Positions 1,184-8,567 of a stretch of 38,514 bases of DNA are shown here, one piece after another (position 1 is the stretch's first letter; each line of letters begins with the position of its first letter). The position numbers were made by a program, and so were the translations under genes. The stretch lies in NCBI GenBank assembly GCA_964501035.1, contig CAZCRK010000001.1, positions 62,001 to 100,514 of the forward strand, in the 5' to 3' direction. The notes under the pieces were generated by a model. The model was given only the letters and a program-made list of their open reading frames with translations, searched no databases and was not told where the DNA came from.

Positions 1184-1212
1184 TTGTACAATTCACTAAG
1201 TCTTAATAAGTT
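1184..1212 (+). promoter_or_regulatory. Putative sigma70 promoter of the cys leader/operon
   Basis: TTGTAC (1184-1189), 17-nt spacer, TAAGTT (1207-1212); predicted start site about 1219-1221. Confidence 0.5.
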
Positions 1213-1220
1213 TTTACCCC

Positions 1221-1328
1221 GTGATTAATGAATATTCAAATCTAAAGGCAAATGATTTAACTGTGACAACTGACCATAGCTGTTGTTGTTGCTGTTCTAT
1301 GTTCGGAGGAGGAGACTTGCCCAGATAA
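1221..1328 (+). CDS. Poly-cysteine leader peptide, 35 aa (MINEYSNLKANDLTVTTDHSCCCCCSMFGGGDLPR)
   Basis: GTG 1221 to TAA 1326-1328; five consecutive Cys codons at 1281-1295; lies between the promoter and a terminator upstream of cysteine synthase; alternative in-frame GTG at 1263. Confidence 0.8.
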   Translation: MINEYSNLKANDLTVTTDHSCCCCCSMFGGGDLPR

Positions 1329-1350
1329 AGGATTTGAATATTGATTATAT

Positions 1351-1388
1351 AACCCCTTTTGTCGGTAAGGCAAGAGGGGTTTTTTTTT
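1351..1388 (+). terminator. Intrinsic terminator (attenuator) upstream of cysM
   Basis: AACCCCTTTTGTC-ggtaa-GGCAAGAGGGGTT 13-bp stem running into a T tract, ending 11 nt before the cysM ATG. Confidence 0.9.
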
Positions 1389-1399
1389 AGAAAGAAAAA

Positions 1400-2299
1400 A
1401 TGAAAAGAAGTAATAATATATTAGATTTAATTGGAAACACACCACTTTTAGATATAAGTAATCTCTTTGACAGTGAGCAAACCAATATTTTTGCAAAAGC
1501 TGAGTGGGCAAATCCCGGAGGTTCTCTAAAAGACAGACCCGTTAAGCGCATGTTGTTAGAGGCAATTAAGGATGGAAATCTAACTAAAGATAAAACACTG
1601 ATTGACTCAAGTAGTGGAAATGCAGGCATTGCCTATTCAATGATCGGAAATGCACTAAGGTATAATGTAGAAATTGTTATCCCTGGAAATGCGAGTTTAG
1701 AACGAAAAAATCGAATGAAAGCACATGGAACAACCATTATTGAAACTGATCCAATTGAAGGCTATGATGAAGCGTTGCGTCATGTACATCAACTTGTGGA
1801 TGAGCACCCAGATAAATACTTTTTCTGTGATCAATATGCAAACGATAATAATTGGTTGGCACATTACCACACAACTGCTGAAGAAATAATTACTCAAGTT
1901 GGCGGTGAGATAAATTATTTTGTTGGGGGAGTAGGAACTGGAGGATCAATTACTGGAATTGGACGCAAACTGAAAGAAAAGTTTCCCAATATTAAAATTA
2001 TGGGTGTTCGGCCAGAAATTTGGCCCGGTATTGAGGGATTGAAACCATTGGGTTCACCAGAAGATATTGTACCCAAAATTTTTGATGAGTCTGTAGTTGA
2101 TGATTGGATTTATACAACAGCTGATGATGCCAAACATTGGGCAAACTCAATTGCGAAAAAAGGATTTTTTGTAGGTCAATCATCCGGAGCATATTTATCG
2201 GCAGTATCCAAATTGCTTGAAGATGTTTCAACTGGGACTGTAGTTACTCTGTTTAACGATTTAGGCGAACGGTATTTTAGTTCTGGGTTATGGAGTTAG
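1400..2299 (+). CDS. cysM: PLP-dependent cysteine synthase, probably sulfur-carrier (CysO)-dependent CysM type
   Basis: IGNTPL, NPGGSLKDR (PLP Lys), SSGNAG, GTGGSITG; adjacent to JAB and Ubl-MoeB genes. Confidence 0.9.
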   Translation: MKRSNNILDLIGNTPLLDISNLFDSEQTNIFAKAEWANPGGSLKDRPVKRMLLEAIKDGNLTKDKTLIDSSSGNAGIAYSMIGNALRYNVEIVIPGNASLERKNRMKAHGTTIIETDPIEGYDEALRHVHQLVDEHPDKYFFCDQYANDNNWLAHYHTTAEEIITQVGGEINYFVGGVGTGGSITGIGRKLKEKFPNIKIMGVRPEIWPGIEGLKPLGSPEDIVPKIFDESVVDDWIYTTADDAKHWANSIAKKGFFVGQSSGAYLSAVSKLLEDVSTGTVVTLFNDLGERYFSSGLWS

Positions 2300-2300
2300 T

Positions 2301-2738
2301 ATGAGCAGTATCACACTATCAAATAAAATTGTAAAGCAATTTATAACCCAAGCTGAAAGAGAATATCCATATGAATGTTGTGGTTTCATACTAGGGGAGT
2401 TTTCTGAAAATGGAACCAATGCTACTGAATATATTCCAGCTGATAATTCAAAAGGTGAAAACAGAAAACGACGTTTTTTGATAGACCCGTTAGCATACCA
2501 AAATGCTGAAGATAAAGCAGATGAATTGGGACTTTCTGTTATTAGTATTGTGCATTCGCATCCAGACCATCCCGATCACCCCTCAGAGTTTGATAGAGAA
2601 CACGCATGGCCTGGGTTTAGTTACATTATTATATCAGTCCAAAAAGGGAAATCAGTGAGCTATAAATCATGGCAATTGGTAGAAGATAGAACACAATTTA
2701 ATGAAGAAGAAATTAGTATAAAAAAGGAGGAAGAATAA
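2301..2738 (+). CDS. mec: JAB/MPN+ (M67) metallopeptidase, Mec+-like CysO-cysteine peptidase
   Basis: YPYECCG...HSHPDHPDHPSEFD JAMM motif; operon context. Confidence 0.88.
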   Translation: MSSITLSNKIVKQFITQAEREYPYECCGFILGEFSENGTNATEYIPADNSKGENRKRRFLIDPLAYQNAEDKADELGLSVISIVHSHPDHPDHPSEFDREHAWPGFSYIIISVQKGKSVSYKSWQLVEDRTQFNEEEISIKKEEE

Positions 2739-4147
2739 TGGCTAGTACATTAAAAATACCGTCACCCCTACGACGGTTCACAAACGGGCAGGCAACACTT
2801 GATGTGAGCGGGGCAACAATCCGTCATGTCTTAGACGAATTATTTAGTGAGTTTCCAGATATTAAAGGGCACCTCATTGAAGATTCAGGAGAGTTGCGTA
2901 ATTTTGTAAATATTTACATTGGGAAAGAAAGCATAAAGCATCTAGGTGGTGCAGAAGCTTCTGTTGATTCCGGTGCAGATATTCGCATTATTCCATCAAT
3001 TGCGGGGGGAGCTCCAGAGCTTTCCCCTGCTGAGCTCTCTCGGTATAGTCGGCACCTTATTCTTCCAGAGGTTGGAATTAATGGACAAAAAAAATTAAAA
3101 TCTGCAAAAGTATTGGTAGTTGGAGCTGGTGGACTAGGGAGCCCTGTTTCTTTATATCTAACTGCTGCAGGTGTAGGAACCATTGGACTAGTTGATTTTG
3201 ATATTGTTGATGAATCAAACCTGCAACGGCAAGTATTGTTTGGTGTGGATCAAGTTGGAAAATCAAAAGTAAAAAGCGCACAAGAACGTCTCGAAAATTT
3301 AAACCCTAACACAAATTTTATTTTACACGAAGAACCATTAAACTCATTAAACGCCCTTGATATTATTAAAGATTATGATATGGTTGTCGATGGCACCGAT
3401 AATTTCCCAACTCGCTACCTTGTAAACGATGCCTGTGTACTTTTAGGTAAACCAAATGTATATGGCAGTATTTACAGATTTGATGGCCAAGTTTCTGTTT
3501 TCAACCATGAAAATGGACCTTGCTATAGATGTCTATACCCGGCACCTCCTCCACCGGGTTTAGTACCCTCTTGCGCAGAAGGTGGCGTGTTGGGTGTGCT
3601 TCCGGGTATTGTAGGATGCTTGCAGGCAAATGAAGCAATAAAACTAATTTTGGGTGTTGGAGATTCCATGAAAGGTCGCTTCCTCCTCTTTGATGCGCTT
3701 GGCATGGAATTTAACGAATTGGTCGTCCGGAAAAATGATGATTGTGTGATTTGTGGGAATAACCCAAGCATCACTCAACTGATTGATTACCAAGAGTTTT
3801 GTGGAATTATTCAGGACGACCAACCCAAAATAGAAGAAATTTCTGTATCAGAATTAAAAGAAAAATGGGACAAAGAACCTTCAACCATAGTTTTAGATGT
3901 ACGAGAAGACTTTGAGCTTCAAATTGCAAAAATAGATGGTGTAATTCATATACCCATGAAACAAGTTTCTGGACACTTAGAGGAATTTGATCCTGAAAAA
4001 GAGATTATTATTATGTGTCGATCAGGGCAACGATCAGCAAAAATATGTGAAGAATTTTTAGAACACAATTTTAAAGATGTAAAGAATTTAAAAGGGGGGA
4101 TACTAGCATGGTCAGAGGAAATAGACTCATCAATACCACAATACTAA
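2738..4147 (+). CDS. moeB: MoaD/ThiS/CysO-like sulfur carrier fused to MoeB (E1-like adenylyltransferase) and rhodanese (MoeZ-like)
   Basis: aa 1-91 beta-grasp ending IIPSIAGG; then RYSRHLILPEVG, GAGGLG, SNLQRQ, CYRC, PSCAEGGV; C-terminal rhodanese CRSGQRS. Confidence 0.93.
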   Translation: MASTLKIPSPLRRFTNGQATLDVSGATIRHVLDELFSEFPDIKGHLIEDSGELRNFVNIYIGKESIKHLGGAEASVDSGADIRIIPSIAGGAPELSPAELSRYSRHLILPEVGINGQKKLKSAKVLVVGAGGLGSPVSLYLTAAGVGTIGLVDFDIVDESNLQRQVLFGVDQVGKSKVKSAQERLENLNPNTNFILHEEPLNSLNALDIIKDYDMVVDGTDNFPTRYLVNDACVLLGKPNVYGSIYRFDGQVSVFNHENGPCYRCLYPAPPPPGLVPSCAEGGVLGVLPGIVGCLQANEAIKLILGVGDSMKGRFLLFDALGMEFNELVVRKNDDCVICGNNPSITQLIDYQEFCGIIQDDQPKIEEISVSELKEKWDKEPSTIVLDVREDFELQIAKIDGVIHIPMKQVSGHLEEFDPEKEIIIMCRSGQRSAKICEEFLEHNFKDVKNLKGGILAWSEEIDSSIPQY

Positions 4148-4626
4148 AAGAGGTGTTTTCTTTTCCAGAAACTGTGAATGAATATGCAGCACGTACCGTA
4201 GCTGGGTTTGTTGTTGCATTATCAATTTTATTTTTGTGGACGGAGAATTTGTACATTCTTGGATTATTAGCATACGGTTTTTGGGCACGGGTGTTAACTG
4301 GACCAACTCTGAGCCCAATTGCATTATTGGTTACTAAGATAATTATTCCAGCTGTAGGTGAACCAAGGCTTGATTGTCCGGGTCCTCCTAAACGTTTTGC
4401 GCAGGGAATTGGAGCAATGTTTACTACATCTTCATTAATTTTGATTTTAAGTGGACATGTTGAATATGCAAACATTGCAATGAGTGTACTTGTTTTCTTT
4501 GCTAGTTTGGAATCGTTTATTGGTTTTTGTGCGGGATGTTGGATGTTTAAACAAATGATGAGTTTAGGCTGGATTCCTGAAACAGTTTGTGAAAAATGTA
4601 ATAATTTATCTTTTTCAACAAAATAA
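4108..4626 (+). CDS. DUF4395-family membrane protein (sulfur-metabolism associated); true start may be further downstream (e.g. GTG 4153)
   Basis: VNEYAAR...GPPKRFAQGIG...GFCAGC motifs, four hydrophobic segments. Confidence 0.8.
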   Translation: MVRGNRLINTTILKEVFSFPETVNEYAARTVAGFVVALSILFLWTENLYILGLLAYGFWARVLTGPTLSPIALLVTKIIIPAVGEPRLDCPGPPKRFAQGIGAMFTTSSLILILSGHVEYANIAMSVLVFFASLESFIGFCAGCWMFKQMMSLGWIPETVCEKCNNLSFSTK

Positions 4627-4823: not shown

Positions 4824-7800
4824 ATGAGAACATCAATTTTTTTAACTCACAAAATATATACAATTTTATTATTTGCAATAATGGCATTGACTCCTCTATT
4901 TACACAAGATAATTCGCAAATGACATTCATTGAAGGGAACGTGATAGCTTGTAATGGGTGTTTGGGAGGACCAGTAGGTTGTCCAATCCCGGGTGCAAAT
5001 ATTGACGCGGTTCCGCTTAATTCTGCAACGGATGAAGCATATACGACGAATGCAGATGAAAATGGCCACTTTGCCCTAGAAGTACCTGTAGGTGCATATT
5101 CTGTAACATGCAGTCAAACAGGATGGGAAAACCAAACCCAAACTATTGAAGTTGGATATAATGGCAGTGCAATTGAGTTTTGTTTAACAGAAGTACAAGA
5201 TTTAGAAGTAGTTGCTAGTGGTCACGTATATGGTAATTACTACCCGGATCAAAACAATGCTGAACCACTTCACAATGCCACAGTTTATTTCCAATATTAT
5301 TTTGCAAGTGACATTGAACCCAGTCTTTTGCTTAGCCAACAGACCGATGAAAATGGATATTTTGAATTTTATTATCCCTATGATTCTGGGTGGACTGGTG
5401 ATTATGATTTAAGTCATTTCACATTGAGTGTTCAAGCGGAGGGATACTACAATGCAGAAATGACCTTTGAATATAATAATGCACCCATAACCCACAATTT
5501 CTTTTTAACTCCAAATGTTGAACCAACGGATGTGATATTTTCTGGAACTGTGAGTGGAAGTTTTAATGATATGTTACCTGCGTTTATACCTTTAGAAGGT
5601 GCATTGGTTGAAGTTATTTCAGGTACTGCATCGGGTGTTTATGATGTGATTTTTGAAACAGAAACAAATCATGATGGATATTTTCAATTTTTAAACAATG
5701 TTAATACTCCGTTCCCTGAAGAGGCACAAGTAAGAGTATCAAAAGATGGATATTCAACTGTTGAAGAATGGTTTGATTTTCACGAATTGCCTGTAACTCA
5801 CGATTTTTATCTAAACCATATTACGGACCCATACCCAACAACAACTGTGTTTGGACATGTAAGCGCACAACTATCACCAATGGGTCCTGTTTTTCCAATT
5901 GGCGGTGCTGTAATTGGGGCTACTCCTAGTTGGGGTGATGCACCATATTACGAAACAGAAACCAATGAAAATGGTTGGTTTGAATTAGAATTGGAAGATT
6001 CTGCAATTGGAAATGTTGAATGGCTCATTACATGTTTTACAGACTATGGCACGCAAACACAAACATTTTTAGCCTATCCTGGAGAAGAAAATGAAGTCAA
6101 TTTTCATTTTAATGCATGGGATGAACCGGTTTTACAGGCTCCTTACAATTTAACCGTTGAGCTTGTTCAAGATGCAAATCAGTGGGAGCCAACAGCTATT
6201 TTAAATTGGGAATATCCACCAACGGATGATTTCAATTTGCCAGTTTCATTTAATATTTATGCACAATACGGAGGACCCAATGGGCCCTTTGTACATACAG
6301 GAATTACTGATGTAAACCACTTTGAAATGATGATTGGAGGTTTTGTTGGTTATAATGGATGTTTCTATGTTACTGCAACGCTAAATGGACTAGAATCTGA
6401 ACCGAGTAATACTGCGTGTGTTGAAGGTTTTGATCCCGAACCTGTTTGCGAGGATTTATCTGGAATATCATTTGGTGATTGTGAAATGATAATTGGCATT
6501 GGTTGGAACGGAGAAGAATGCACATGGTTCTCTGGGTGTGGAACAGTATCCGAAGATGGTGTGGATTATTCCAATGCATTCTTTGATAGTGTTGAAGAAT
6601 GCGAAGTAGCTTGTGGCATTGAGGATGATGGACCACCTGAGTGCATTATGGATTGCCCAAGTTTTGAAGATATTGATCCCAATGAAAATGCAGATATTGC
6701 GTGTGAGTGGATAATTGATACTGTAACCAGTGACTCAGAATGCATTTCCGATTGTGATGATTATACTTTAGAAATGTTATCCGAAGTTTCTTGGGCATGC
6801 GAAATGTGTTTAGCTGGTGAATTTGAATGTGAAGACATATTTAATGATGATGATCCACATGAAAATGGTGTTATTTATGGAATGGTTGAGTATGTGTGGG
6901 GTGATGCAATTGAACTTGTTGCAGGAGCTCATATTGTAATTACTGGAATTTCATCGGATGGAACTGTCGAAGATGTCTATGAAACTGAAACGAATGAACA
7001 GGGTATGTATGAAATTGAAGTTCCTGTAGGTTCTTATCATGTTACGTGCACTGCGTATGAAGAAACTGAAACAATTGAAGCATTTGTTGAAGCTGGACAT
7101 GAAGTTCAAGTTAACTTTCAATTTGGTGAATTTTATTTCCCAACTGCTATTACTGGAATGGTATATGGTGAGTTGGAAATGCCAGAACCCATCGATGATG
7201 CTCATTTAACGATTCATTATGATAATGGTATTTTTCTTGAAACATGGACTAATGAAGGTTGGTATTGGTTAGACCTTCCAGGTGCAGGTGAATATTATGT
7301 ATCCATAGAAGCAGAGGGTTATTTCCCTGAAGATATAAATTTCTTTGCCTATGAAGGAATTAATGAAATGGACTTTTATCTGACTCCAATAGATGACTAT
7401 ATGGATCCAGAAGCAACCTTCATACTAGGAAATGCAAGTATTACCGAAGAAAATGAGGTGATTGTACCGTTGTATCTACATTCCGAAGTAGATATTGCTG
7501 GGCTTCAATTTGCAGTATGGCCTGAGCAGTATTATAACGATTTCTATTTAATGCCTTCTGGCTTAGAATCTATGAATGATTGCTTTACTGCAAACTGGAA
7601 CGAAGTATATGGTCAACTTTGGGGTATTATGTTTAGCTTAGAAGGTTGTGTGTTTGAAGCCTATGAAGAACATCATGTTGCCAACTTAGCATTTTCATCA
7701 GAGGGCTTTCCAATTCCTGGTTTAGAAATACCATTGGTATTTAATGAAACCATTGCCTCTGACCCAGATGGTAATGAAATACAGTCTGAAGGTATTGGAA

Positions 7801-8567
7801 CGATTGTCACATTTGGTATGCAAGGCGATATCAATGCGGATGGCGCAATTAACGTGATGGATATTGTTCAACTGGTGAATTTTGTTCTCAATATTGACGA
7901 ACCAACCGACTATGAATTTTGGGCAGGAGATGTAAATGTTGATGGAACACTGAATGTAATTGATGTTGTTCAAATTGTAAATATTATTTTATATGATGAT
8001 GAAATGGGTAGTGCTGGACGATTAGAAAATGGAGAAGCTCGATTGCAATACAATCAACATTCAATTATAATTCAAGGCAGTAATATTGCAGGTTTTCAAA
8101 TTGAATTTGAAGGAGAATTGCAGAGACCTCAACTACCAATGGGATGGGAGTTTGTTTCATCTGGCAGTATTGCAATTGCATATTCACTGCAGGGTGTAAT
8201 GATAAATGAACCAATTCAAATTGCATTTAATGGTGAAGTTTTATCAGCCATAATTAGTGATAGTAATGGTAGTTCAATTCCAGTTTTGATGGATGAAATA
8301 CCAGAATCAACTACATTACAAAATGCATATCCAAACCCATTTAACCCAACGACTACCATAGGTTTTACCATAGATAATGGACATGCTATGACCTTGCAAA
8401 TATTTAATATTAATGGTCAAATGGTACAATCGTTGGTGGATGGATTTGTAGAAGCTGGATTCCATGAAGTTGTATGGGATGCTACTAACTTTTCATCGGG
8501 TGTGTATTTAATACATATGGCAACACCCAATCAAGCATTCACGCAAAAATTGATGCTTGTAAAATAA
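4824..8567 (+). CDS. Large secreted multidomain protein: carboxypeptidase-regulatory-like repeats, FN3-like, Cys-rich modules, cohesin-like domain, dockerin, FlgD/T9SS-type C-terminal sorting domain
   Basis: Signal peptide; repeated TxENGxF motifs; VPLYLHSEVDIAGLQF (cohesin-like); GDINADGAINVMDIV/GDVNVDGTLNVIDVV; AYPNPFNPTT...SSGVYLI...KLMLVK; RBS AAGGAG. Confidence 0.85.
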   Translation: MRTSIFLTHKIYTILLFAIMALTPLFTQDNSQMTFIEGNVIACNGCLGGPVGCPIPGANIDAVPLNSATDEAYTTNADENGHFALEVPVGAYSVTCSQTGWENQTQTIEVGYNGSAIEFCLTEVQDLEVVASGHVYGNYYPDQNNAEPLHNATVYFQYYFASDIEPSLLLSQQTDENGYFEFYYPYDSGWTGDYDLSHFTLSVQAEGYYNAEMTFEYNNAPITHNFFLTPNVEPTDVIFSGTVSGSFNDMLPAFIPLEGALVEVISGTASGVYDVIFETETNHDGYFQFLNNVNTPFPEEAQVRVSKDGYSTVEEWFDFHELPVTHDFYLNHITDPYPTTTVFGHVSAQLSPMGPVFPIGGAVIGATPSWGDAPYYETETNENGWFELELEDSAIGNVEWLITCFTDYGTQTQTFLAYPGEENEVNFHFNAWDEPVLQAPYNLTVELVQDANQWEPTAILNWEYPPTDDFNLPVSFNIYAQYGGPNGPFVHTGITDVNHFEMMIGGFVGYNGCFYVTATLNGLESEPSNTACVEGFDPEPVCEDLSGISFGDCEMIIGIGWNGEECTWFSGCGTVSEDGVDYSNAFFDSVEECEVACGIEDDGPPECIMDCPSFEDIDPNENADIACEWIIDTVTSDSECISDCDDYTLEMLSEVSWACEMCLAGEFECEDIFNDDDPHENGVIYGMVEYVWGDAIELVAGAHIVITGISSDGTVEDVYETETNEQGMYEIEVPVGSYHVTCTAYEETETIEAFVEAGHEVQVNFQFGEFYFPTAITGMVYGELEMPEPIDDAHLTIHYDNGIFLETWTNEGWYWLDLPGAGEYYVSIEAEGYFPEDINFFAYEGINEMDFYLTPIDDYMDPEATFILGNASITEENEVIVPLYLHSEVDIAGLQFAVWPEQYYNDFYLMPSGLESMNDCFTANWNEVYGQLWGIMFSLEGCVFEAYEEHHVANLAFSSEGFPIPGLEIPLVFNETIASDPDGNEIQSEGIGTIVTFGMQGDINADGAINVMDIVQLVNFVLNIDEPTDYEFWAGDVNVDGTLNVIDVVQIVNIILYDDEMGSAGRLENGEARLQYNQHSIIIQGSNIAGFQIEFEGELQRPQLPMGWEFVSSGSIAIAYSLQGVMINEPIQIAFNGEVLSAIISDSNGSSIPVLMDEIPESTTLQNAYPNPFNPTTTIGFTIDNGHAMTLQIFNINGQMVQSLVDGFVEAGFHEVVWDATNFSSGVYLIHMATPNQAFTQKLMLVK

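Follow-up and report, generated by a model that had tools for sequence, protein, structure and literature searches.

We analysed a 38,514-nucleotide (nt) stretch of a metagenome-assembled genome (MAG), referred to below as the window and numbered from its first letter (GenBank assembly GCA_964501035.1, contig CAZCRK010000001.1, positions 62,001 to 100,514 of the forward strand). The lineage belongs to the phylum Fidelibacterota/Marinisomatota, placed by NCBI in the Fibrobacterota-Chlorobiota-Bacteroidota (FCB) group, and we take Fidelibacterota to be the SAR406/Marinisomatota lineage. Just upstream of a cysteine synthase family gene (cysM, starting at 1400), the window very probably carries a conserved, cysteine-sensing transcription attenuator, in which a ribosome would read the supply of charged tRNA-Cys on a probably leaderless transcript. 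The original prediction, made from the window alone, proposed a poly-cysteine (poly-Cys) leader open reading frame (ORF) and a terminator that together control an operon for CysM, a JAB protease and a ThiS-ThiF-rhodanese fusion, and this core reading is strongly supported by the recurrence of the arrangement in relatives. That recurrence upstream of orthologous cysM genes, the rarity of Cys runs in the genome and the z score of the leader fold argue that the attenuator is not a chance arrangement. The parts of the leader, all on the plus strand, are as follows.

1184-1189, plus strand: -35-like hexamer TTGTAC, inside conserved TTCTTGTA, at a conserved distance from the start codon
1207-1214, plus strand: -10-like or "-7 box"-like element TAAGTTTT, an 8-mer ending 6 nt before the GTG
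1221-1328, plus strand: leader ORF of 35 codons, from GTG 1221 to TAA 1326-1328, read from the sequence and translated
1226-1243, plus strand: 5' strand of helix A (codons 3-8), paired with 1330-1347 in the minimum free energy (MFE) fold
1247-1251, plus strand: 5' strand of helix B, GGCAA, paired with TTGCC 1317-1321
1259-1296, plus strand: hairpin with the Cys codons in its 3' strand and a U-rich stretch after it
1281-1295, plus strand: Cys run TGT TGT TGT TGC TGT, five consecutive codons, the proposed sensor
1305-1314, plus strand: G-rich element GGAGGAGGAG, resembling a Shine-Dalgarno (SD) sequence, candidate 5' strand of the antiterminator
1316-1331, plus strand: segment with the 3' strand of helix B (B', 1317-1321), the stop codon and the antiterminator strands first proposed
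1330-1347, plus strand: 3' strand of helix A (A'), beginning 2 nt past the stop codon
1351-1388, plus strand: intrinsic terminator with stem 1351-1363/1369-1381, loop GGTAA and T9 tail 1380-1388

Direct reading and translation found the predicted ORF and its five Cys codons in place, and a terminator scan found the terminator behind it. The encoded peptide is VINEYSNLKANDLTVTTDHSCCCCCSMFGGGDLPR, ending at the stop codon. The terminator, AACCCCTTTTGTC-GGTAA-GGCAAGAGGGGTT, has 13 pairs, 6 of them G-C, a loop of 5 and an energy of -20.6 kcal/mol; its T tail ends 11 nt, and its hairpin 18 nt, before the cysM ATG. Only three runs of at least five Cys codons occur on the two strands of the 1.87-Mb assembly, and this one alone is followed by a terminator. 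Read by eye, the other runs of at least four Cys codons had none either, and no further poly-Cys leader was found in this genome. Elsewhere in the assembly (G000:C37, plus strand, around position 3606), an 86-codon ORF has a hydrophobic middle and a very Cys-rich C terminus ending in KCCCCSCCSDTCCTESE; this is not a leader, though it may encode a genuine small membrane protein.

A poly-Cys short ORF with a terminator precedes the cysM orthologue in 17 of 34 genomes examined, the window included. The genomes that carry it belong to four families (f1-f4) of one order, and their leaders are of five unrelated sequence types; no leader was found upstream of cysM in the 3 genomes examined from family f5 or in the 12 examined outside the order. 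Among 13 orthologous loci from 40 relatives (56 to 91% protein identity), 10 have the leader and terminator and 3 (L010, L012 and L015) do not. A phylum-wide sample held a cysM orthologue in 36 of 401 genomes, and 20 further upstream regions added 6 with a leader and 14 without; the orthologues of G221, G332 and the truncated G304 were left out of this count. The loci examined were 70 of the 71 from named genomes, where the sister species recurs as L032, and 50 of the 80 metagenome loci kept, 5 of which (L126, L131, L132, L135 and L136, the last two identical) carry a sixth leader type with three Cys codons. Farther away, more distant cysK-like genes of six Bacteroidota are likewise preceded by poly-Cys short ORFs with terminators, and one Chloroflexota MAG has a poly-Cys short ORF with only a weaker hairpin before its T-run. 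Alignment of the cysM upstream regions, which had been suggested as a check, thus showed both the recurring in-frame Cys run and covarying stems, in helix B and the terminator.

Two groups of relatives are arranged differently. In genus g10 and its metagenome relatives (L010, L012, L123, L125, L127 and L129), a cysM of 73 to 78% identity has neither leader nor terminator, and at loci of the g10 type the upstream gene is only ~120 nt away; the attenuator has therefore been lost, or was never gained, within the same family. In family f22 (L113-L117), cysM has no Cys leader, and a conserved palindrome, GGACAA-N4-6-TGTC(G)TAATT, stands ~60 to 90 nt upstream. It is probably a repressor or activator site, which would put this cysM under a different kind of control.

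Twelve leaders, from genera g1, g3 and g7, can be aligned with one another (class I), and the alignment bears a reading-frame signature. In the start column, all 12 sequences have GTG, TTG or ATG, with the TG invariant. Insertions and deletions within the ORF come in blocks of 12, 9 and 3 nt, and those after the stop in blocks of 1, 1, 2, 4, 4 and 1 nt. Relatives have runs of three to six Cys codons at the equivalent place, with TGT and TGC in varying positions, and TGC moves about within the run from one class-I sequence to another. In all 21 leaders compared, the Cys frame stops 11 to 15 codons past the first Cys codon; read back to the predicted 5' end, the +1 frame is open in none of them and the +2 frame in 9, the openness of the Cys frame itself following by construction from the start call. 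The frame-respecting indels, the NTG column and the alternation of TGT with TGC together point to translation of the leader ORF. Outside the Cys run, the peptide is not conserved between leader types.

One further regularity concerns the end of the ORF. Counted by eye, 23 of about 30 poly-Cys leaders of Fidelibacterota, unalignable types included (L004-L011, L013, L014, L103-L108, L131, L209, L223, L232, L235, L237 and L238), end in P-x-stop, a Pro codon followed by one more codon and the stop, and the window copy lies within 1317-1328. The variants LPR, LPA, LPV, VPG, VPV, IPV, IPD, LPE and APE, each followed by the stop, were seen. RNA pairing by the CCN codon, or slow termination, might account for the recurrent penultimate Pro.

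The leader is also strongly structured as RNA. Positions 1213-1399 fold at -51.4 kcal/mol (z = -3.64), and 1 of 200 shuffled sequences folded as well; the long-range duplex between the 5' and 3' parts reaches -28.5 kcal/mol (z = -4.5 against shuffles). Over the 12 class-I sequences, helices A and B and the terminator are paired in 81.1% of cells, against 35 to 52% with slid partners. Covariation scores 0.170, a value reached by 0 of 500 shuffles, and slid partners give no more than 0.090. Helix B is paired in 98.3% of cells, its middle pair being C-G in 4 sequences, U-G in 5 and U-A in 3, and the terminator in 90.4%, with 2 pairs changed on both sides. The value for helix A is lowered to 69.3% because MAFFT misplaces the 3' strand in g3, where single-sequence folds form the helix in a shifted register (UCAAACCAA/UUGGUUUGA in L009). 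Other leader types have enclosing helices of unrelated sequence, according to single-sequence fold predictions. In the MFE folds of all 12 class-I leaders, the first Cys codons are held in a hairpin with an upstream ACA/GCA-rich strand, which may serve as a pause hairpin for RNA polymerase.

Comparison with the congener L003 agrees with this picture. Leader nt 1-34 and 79-130 are identical throughout (34/34 and 52/52), and nt 131-168 differ at one position (37/38 identical), against 14 of 26 identities between helix B and the Cys run and 170 of 299 at third codon positions of cysM. Near-identity of the structured segments despite diverged third positions indicates selection on the RNA. The original prediction had the terminator and ORF right and missed the long-range helices A and B, the Cys-codon hairpin and the invariance of a G-rich octamer, GGAGGAGG (1305-1312).

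Ahead of the ORF, all 16 leaders with upstream sequence have CTTG(T/C/A/G), at constant spacing from the start codon (L005 is cut by a contig end). A TAnnTTT box scores 5/5 at its fixed distance in 16 of 17 leaders, and 4/5 in L014 at its corrected ATG start. In the window, the hexamer TAAGTT (1207-1212) ends 8 nt before the GTG, as had been noted, and TTGTAC lies 17 nt further upstream; the latter is absent from our consensus-scan list, as the scan demands 4 of 6 matches per hexamer. A TAnnTTTG box at -12 to -5 from the transcription start site (TSS) is described for Flavobacterium psychrophilum (PMC9723704). With this spacing, or with a -35/-10 reading, the predicted TSS falls 0 to 2 nt before the GTG. 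No SD sequence precedes GTG 1221, again in line with the earlier observation, and the leader transcript is thus probably leaderless or nearly so. The 3' end of 16S rRNA, sought in the MAG for its anti-SD, gave no match, and SD use was judged from upstream G-enrichment: of 901 long ORFs, 31.5% have a 4-mer SD core upstream (5.5% in a control region), GGAGG as such being infrequent (1.8%), which makes the internal GGAGGAGG a strong SD-like site.

A palindrome, GTGA-TGTTTC-TCAC (1133-1146; GTGA-N6-TCAC), is found ~80 nt upstream of the leader start, after the stop codon of the preceding thioesterase gene, and similar palindromes occupy the matching place in L003, L007, L009, L011 and L014. We liken it to the CRP/FNR consensus TGTGA-N6-TCACA. 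It may be a transcription-factor site, forming a second layer of control outside the attenuator proper.

In the mechanism we propose, the promoter at 1184-1189/1207-1214 would start the transcript at most ~2 nt from GTG 1221, and the leader would be translated in a leaderless or near-leaderless manner. With plentiful Cys-tRNA, the ribosome would pass 1281-1295 and arrive at TAA 1326-1328, where it would cover the G-rich element (1305-1314), B' (1317-1321) and part of A' (1330-1347). With that segment covered, the 13-bp terminator would form and transcription would end 11 nt before cysM. If translation were absent, A:A' and B:B' would close round the ORF and lock the same segment, giving termination by default. 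With scarce Cys-tRNA, the ribosome would stall at the first Cys codons with a footprint of about 1266-1294 (footprint sizes are textbook values), leaving 1305-1331 free to pair with the 5' arm of the terminator, either as GGAGGAGG with CCCCUUU or, in a genus-specific alternative, as GAUAAAGG/CUUGCC with CUUUUGUC/GGCAAG. Capture of the 5' arm would then permit read-through into the cysM, JAB, ThiS-ThiF-rhodanese and DUF4395 genes.

The layout of the leaders fits these steps. In the leaders tabulated, the G-rich element begins 12 to 24 nt after the first Cys codon and ends 10 to 16 nt before the stop, a position that would leave it free during a stall at the first Cys codon and place it beneath, or level with, the rear of a ribosome at the stop. 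An upstream segment that sequesters segment 2, the strand that would capture the terminator arm, is present in the form of A:A' and B:B'. These helices cannot nest with the pairing of the G-rich element to the 5' arm and should therefore act as an anti-antiterminator, making the default state off.

Two strands are candidates for the antiterminator of the window itself, GGAGGAGG and the stop-codon region. The former is invariant in 12 of 12 class-I leaders, though its Gly codons could vary (GGTGGCGG would be a synonymous alternative), and a duplex search found the G-rich element to be the best partner of the terminator 5' arm in all 12. The duplex has -7.1 kcal/mol in the window (z = -0.4), -8.4 to -9.0 kcal/mol in g7 (z from -0.6 to -1.3), -11.8 to -14.5 kcal/mol in g3 (z about -2.1), -11.1 kcal/mol in L005 and L006 (z = -3.0 and -3.6) and -8.0 to -12.6 kcal/mol in the metagenome type (L126, L131, L132 and L135; z from -2.4 to -4.6). 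In L005, L006 and the metagenome type, the G-rich element is a plain copy of the terminator 3' arm (AAAGGGG, GAGGGG). Alternative folds in g3 reach -18.3 (L007) and -26.4 (L009), against -18.0 and -19.7 for the terminators, and this holds with the 5' region left free. Folding under a mask for the stalled ribosome also chose the G-rich:5' arm pairing in L105, L126 and L005. On these models, the antiterminator pairing looks convincing in the relatives (g3, L105, L126 and L005).

The stop-codon region was the choice of the original prediction, in the form of an outer helix, CTTGCC (1316-1321) with GGCAAG (1369-1374), and an inner one, GATAAAGG (1324-1331) with CTTTTGTC (1356-1363). Both helices can be drawn in the window, at -4.8 kcal/mol for the inner alone and -13.4 for the two together, against -20.6 for the terminator; they are complete only within the genus. 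In g7, 4 to 5 of the 6 outer and 4 to 6 of the 8 inner pairs are kept, and in g3, 4 of 6 and 1 to 2 of 8.

We also folded the piece of RNA that would exist before synthesis of the 3' arm, running from the front of a ribosome held up at the first Cys codons as far as the terminator loop. The partner then chosen by the 5' arm in the window and L003 is GAUAAAGG (GAUAAAGG:CUUUUGUC, -10.5 for the whole piece), the inner helix of the original prediction. In L004 and L008, B' pairs with the apical GGCAAA of the terminator, and for L104, L105, L107, all g3 leaders (three), L005 and L006 the fold joins the G-rich element to the 5' arm. The folding check proposed for masked ribosomes therefore came out both ways for the window, the terminator always forming in the full leader and its 5' arm being captured by GAUAAAGG in the piece that lacks the 3' arm. 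In our reading, the segment lying between the Cys run and A' would capture the terminator 5' arm, with GGAGGAGG as the probable ancestral partner and the stop-codon region as a genus-specific addition or replacement.

Several findings weigh against the mechanism as drawn. The leader is absent from 17 of the 34 genomes examined. In the window, the pairing of the G-rich element with the 5' arm is statistically indistinct, both as the duplex given above and in the full leader (-3.2), and the GGAGGAGG:CCCCUU pairs never vary on both sides, so that covariation is unable to support them; the pairing of the original prediction, for its part, is complete in only 2 of 12 class-I leaders, the window and its congener. 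Whether or not a ribosome mask is applied, folding the full window leader thermodynamically always favours the terminator (-20.6), as would be expected if the attenuator, like others of its kind, works kinetically, and we do not read this as a refutation. The stalled footprint leaves strands A (1226-1243) and B (1247-1251) uncovered, and under the stall mask A:A' and B:B' still form in the window, L004 and L103, with the 5' arm of the window staying free (-22.2). Opening of these helices during a stall would thus need an extra assumption, either steric hindrance or a second, collided ribosome. In trpL, the regulatory codons are in or beside segment 1, so that a stalled ribosome masks it. Here, the Cys codons are apical in the 1:2 structure, 30 to 55 nt downstream of "segment 1", which a single stalled ribosome leaves uncovered. 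As to the start, TAnnTTTG is not enriched by strand or by position upstream of 857 long ORFs genome-wide (0.96 per kb sense, 0.97 antisense), so that the promoter assignment depends on local conservation; UUG starts, which are unusual for leaderless mRNAs, occur in 4 of 12 leaders.

Part of this difficulty would be met if the attenuator read ribosome traffic, that is, if it were a disome-dependent and SD-clamped device on a leaderless mRNA, a variant that we consider unlikely. GGAGGAGG(U) holds the full SD consensus AGGAGGU in 10 of 12 leaders, and in L004, indexed by hand, 6 nt separate the SD-like element from the conserved Pro codon that follows it at -2 from the stop. A ribosome finishing the leader could clamp the antiterminator strand with its anti-SD and be released late, and this would enforce termination. 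The 51 to 60 nt from start to first Cys codon in class I correspond to about two footprints, and only a stalled ribosome together with a collided one would cover A and B, hold the enclosing helices apart and so permit read-through. This spacing is not general, since leaders of the same kind before sulfite reductase genes have only 21 to 45 nt.

The evidence for attenuation by a translating ribosome has to be set against readings in which translation or termination plays no part. The strongest signals in the leader are at the RNA level: the long-range helices A:A' and B:B' covary, the structured segments are nucleotide-perfect against the congener, GGAGGAGG does not vary where its Gly codons could, and the fold resembles a three-way junction with a long closing helix and an adjoining terminator. 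All this would suit a structured RNA, riboswitch-like or bound by a protein or tRNA, that controls the terminator without translation and in which the ORF and UGU repeats are merely structural. Such an RNA would not account for indels that are multiples of three in the ORF and not downstream of it, for an NTG at a fixed distance from the promoter boxes, or for a Cys frame that in 21 of 21 leaders ends 11 to 15 codons past the first Cys codon, the +1 frame reaching the 5' end in none. Five or six unalignable leader types, moreover, have in common only a run of Cys codons, a terminator and a G-rich copy of its 3' arm. A scan of 1000-1500 against Rfam 15 (E up to 10) gave 8 matches, all below gathering, the best being L10_leader (26.6 bits against 44), and therefore no known riboswitch, T-box or leader family. 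We judge control by RNA alone to be very unlikely.

The output could also lie elsewhere, with a Cys-sensing leader acting mainly on translation initiation of cysM or on message stability, as in the mycobacterial polycysteine short ORFs. Ms5788A, a Cys leader that has been studied, is described as unmasking an SD (bioRxiv 10.1101/834739), and the hairpin, which ends 18 nt before the cysM ATG (the U-tract 11 nt before it), could also hinder ribosome loading. CysM, however, has no SD in its sequence for a structure to mask, and the hairpin is a textbook intrinsic terminator (13 bp, a G-C-rich base, T9) kept in all leaders found, which makes a mainly translational output highly improbable. Finally, the ORF might encode a functional Cys-rich micropeptide, binding metal or sulfur or serving as a JAB/ThiF substrate, with regulation incidental. 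A C-terminal GGG-x-L-P-x is kept in 12 of 12 class-I peptides, and the neighbouring genes act on carriers with a C-terminal Gly-Gly. Against this, GGG and LP are encoded by the invariant GGAGGAGG and B', so that constraints on the RNA explain them; the peptide outside the Cys run differs between lineages, and within the genus 9 of 11 residues differ between helix B and the Cys run while the RNA segments are identical. The same design also precedes sulfite reductase genes, and on balance the micropeptide is hardly credible as the main function.

The wider set of poly-Cys leaders was found with a pattern search (three Cys codons, 65 to 95 nt, then GGGGTTTTT) in the 401 genomes. The pattern matched in 38 of them, in forward or reverse orientation, against 15 hits in 12 genomes for a reversed control. 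We inspected 12 loci with candidate further leaders and terminators and scanned nine downstream proteins with Pfam. Seven leaders precede a NIR_SIR sulfite reductase gene (L233, from the sister species, L235, L237, L223, L230, L232 and L209) and one, L236, a PAPS_reduct gene; they are unrelated to the leader in the window. L238 has 13 consecutive Cys codons before an ORF of 752 residues that resembles that of L237 in size and context. L207, L206 and L218 look like chance matches, with no start or promoter, or with the match inside longer frames, and the downstream protein of L218 has no Pfam family. Within the order, the cysM operon, sulfite reductase and a gene of the PAPS-reductase family thus appear to form a small ribosome-read regulon. 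The genome of the window gave no sulfite reductase with the L233 protein as query, which in a MAG 95.7% complete is no proof of absence. In four genomes (G001, G003, G031 and G027; leaders L233, L230, L237 and L238), two poly-Cys leaders with terminators stand in series before sulfite reductase, and in G031 the cysM and sulfite reductase leaders diverge from one intergenic region.

Behind the terminator, the predicted operon and its surroundings are arranged as follows.

Upstream of the leader: 3' end of a ligase-like gene, then a 4HBT thioesterase gene ending at 1127
1400-2299, plus strand: cysM/CysK-like pyridoxal phosphate (PLP) enzyme gene of the cysteine synthase family (Pfam PALP, 1.5e-61)
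2301-2738, plus strand: JAB/JAMM metalloprotease gene, Mec-like (Pfam Prok-JAB, 6.8e-25)
2738-4147, plus strand: fusion of a ThiS-like carrier, a ThiF/MoeZ adenylyltransferase and a rhodanese, 469 residues (Pfam ThiS, ThiF and Rhodanese; NCBIfam MoeZ/MoeB)
4108-4626, plus strand: DUF4395 gene (Pfam DUF4395, 4.7e-33), probably the last gene of the operon

The cysM product scores 285 bits with NCBIfam cysM, against an equivalog cut-off of 394, and its best solved relative is the cysteine synthase 5xem (1.2e-55). CysM and MoeZ are named here as families, not exact orthologues, because the NCBIfam scores are below the equivalog cut-offs. In the fusion protein, the ThiS-like domain ends in IAGG (residues 88-91) directly before the E1-like domain, and its Gly-Gly end is thus internal; the JAB protease is a candidate for freeing it. 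In other families of the phylum, inspection by eye showed a DUF4395-like frame immediately before cysM. A search of public sequencing runs listed none recorded as RNA for this locus; three runs aligned to it yielded one contig of 250 nt, within cysM (1650-1899), and no coverage of the leader, which bears neither way on expression or on transcript ends. Beyond the operon, 4824-8567 encodes a protein of 1247 residues with CarboxypepD_reg repeats, a dockerin-type domain and a C-terminal sorting domain of the type IX secretion system (T9SS), a secreted or surface protein of FCB-group type, whose T9SS tail pointed to that group.

The classical leader-peptide transcription attenuators are trpL, hisL, thrL, leuL and pheL of E. 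coli and Salmonella. Like them, the leader in the window places a short ORF, with a run of codons for the pathway's amino acid, behind the promoter and ahead of the first biosynthetic gene, with an intrinsic terminator after it, and an upstream segment would pair with the terminator 5' arm while a segment still further upstream would lock it when no ribosome stalls. Unlike them, it would sense cysteine, its start is probably leaderless instead of SD-led, and its candidate antiterminator strand is the SD-like GGAGGAGG. There is no sequence homology, with Rfam His_leader at 18 bits against 49 and Phe_leader at 16.6 against 55, both below gathering.

Closer in what they would sense are the leaderless polycysteine short ORFs of mycobacteria (Ms5788A and Rv2334A, the "Cys ribulon"), described as attenuating translation (Canestrari et al., bioRxiv 10.1101/834739). 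As in the system presented there, the poly-Cys short ORF of the window, with its predicted leaderless start, is the first cistron of a cysteine/sulfur operon, and there are several in the lineage; at least two consecutive Cys codons in a short ORF upstream of cysteine-related operon genes, the mark of the mycobacterial set, are found here too. In the mycobacterial output as described, the SD of the following gene is masked by a duplex, which a stalled ribosome opens, with no terminator involved, whereas here cysM has no SD to hide and the conserved structure is a strong intrinsic terminator. The lineages also differ, the window belonging to the FCB group, and the leaders have no sequence relationship. 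For Actinobacteria, Cys leader peptides have been predicted, with no terminators in the cases presented (Seliverstov et al. 2005, PMC1262725).

The original prediction knew of no such attenuator outside Actinobacteria or with a terminator. That was too strong, as uORFC-8-2, upstream of cysS in Rhodobacterales, combines two tandem Cys codons in a stem with an intrinsic terminator behind them (Brewer et al. 2021, PMC8632094). There, too, ribosome stalling at low Cys-tRNA is proposed to allow read-through. uORFC-8-2 differs in having two Cys codons, in controlling a tRNA synthetase gene, in belonging to Alphaproteobacteria, in being SD-led as far as described and in its description, which features no enclosing long-range helix; it gave no match here in the Rfam scan. 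Nearer by descent are the Bacteroidota cysK-like loci (L071, L091-L094 and L096), of the same superphylum, which share with the window the Cys run, the G-rich copy of the 3' arm in the ORF, the terminator and a cysteine synthase gene. Their leaders are unalignable with those described here, and the downstream gene is only 36 to 43% identical to CysM. We found no publication on poly-Cys leaders with terminators before cysK-like genes in Bacteroidota; transcriptome papers on that phylum mention leader-peptide-like short ORFs and no cysteine case. A search of full-text literature that held few subscription journals likewise returned no Cys leader report for the FCB group or SAR406, which is no proof of absence.

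The principle of attenuation is already known; what is new is the phylum, the layout with enclosing helices and the SD-like candidate antiterminator strand. The finding would extend Cys-sensing leaders from Actinobacteria, where the output is translational or not known, and from Rhodobacterales cysS to the FCB group, with a terminator as the output. The combination of a probably leaderless start, enclosing helices and an SD-like strand raises the question of how the position of the ribosome is transmitted to the RNA. Fidelibacterota/Marinisomatota (SAR406) are abundant, uncultured bacteria of the ocean, and to our knowledge almost no gene-regulatory elements have been described for them. The attenuator proposed here would be a concrete, testable control device for their sulfur and cysteine metabolism, and the ratio of terminated to read-through transcripts at ~1388 could mark cysteine limitation in situ in metatranscriptomes.

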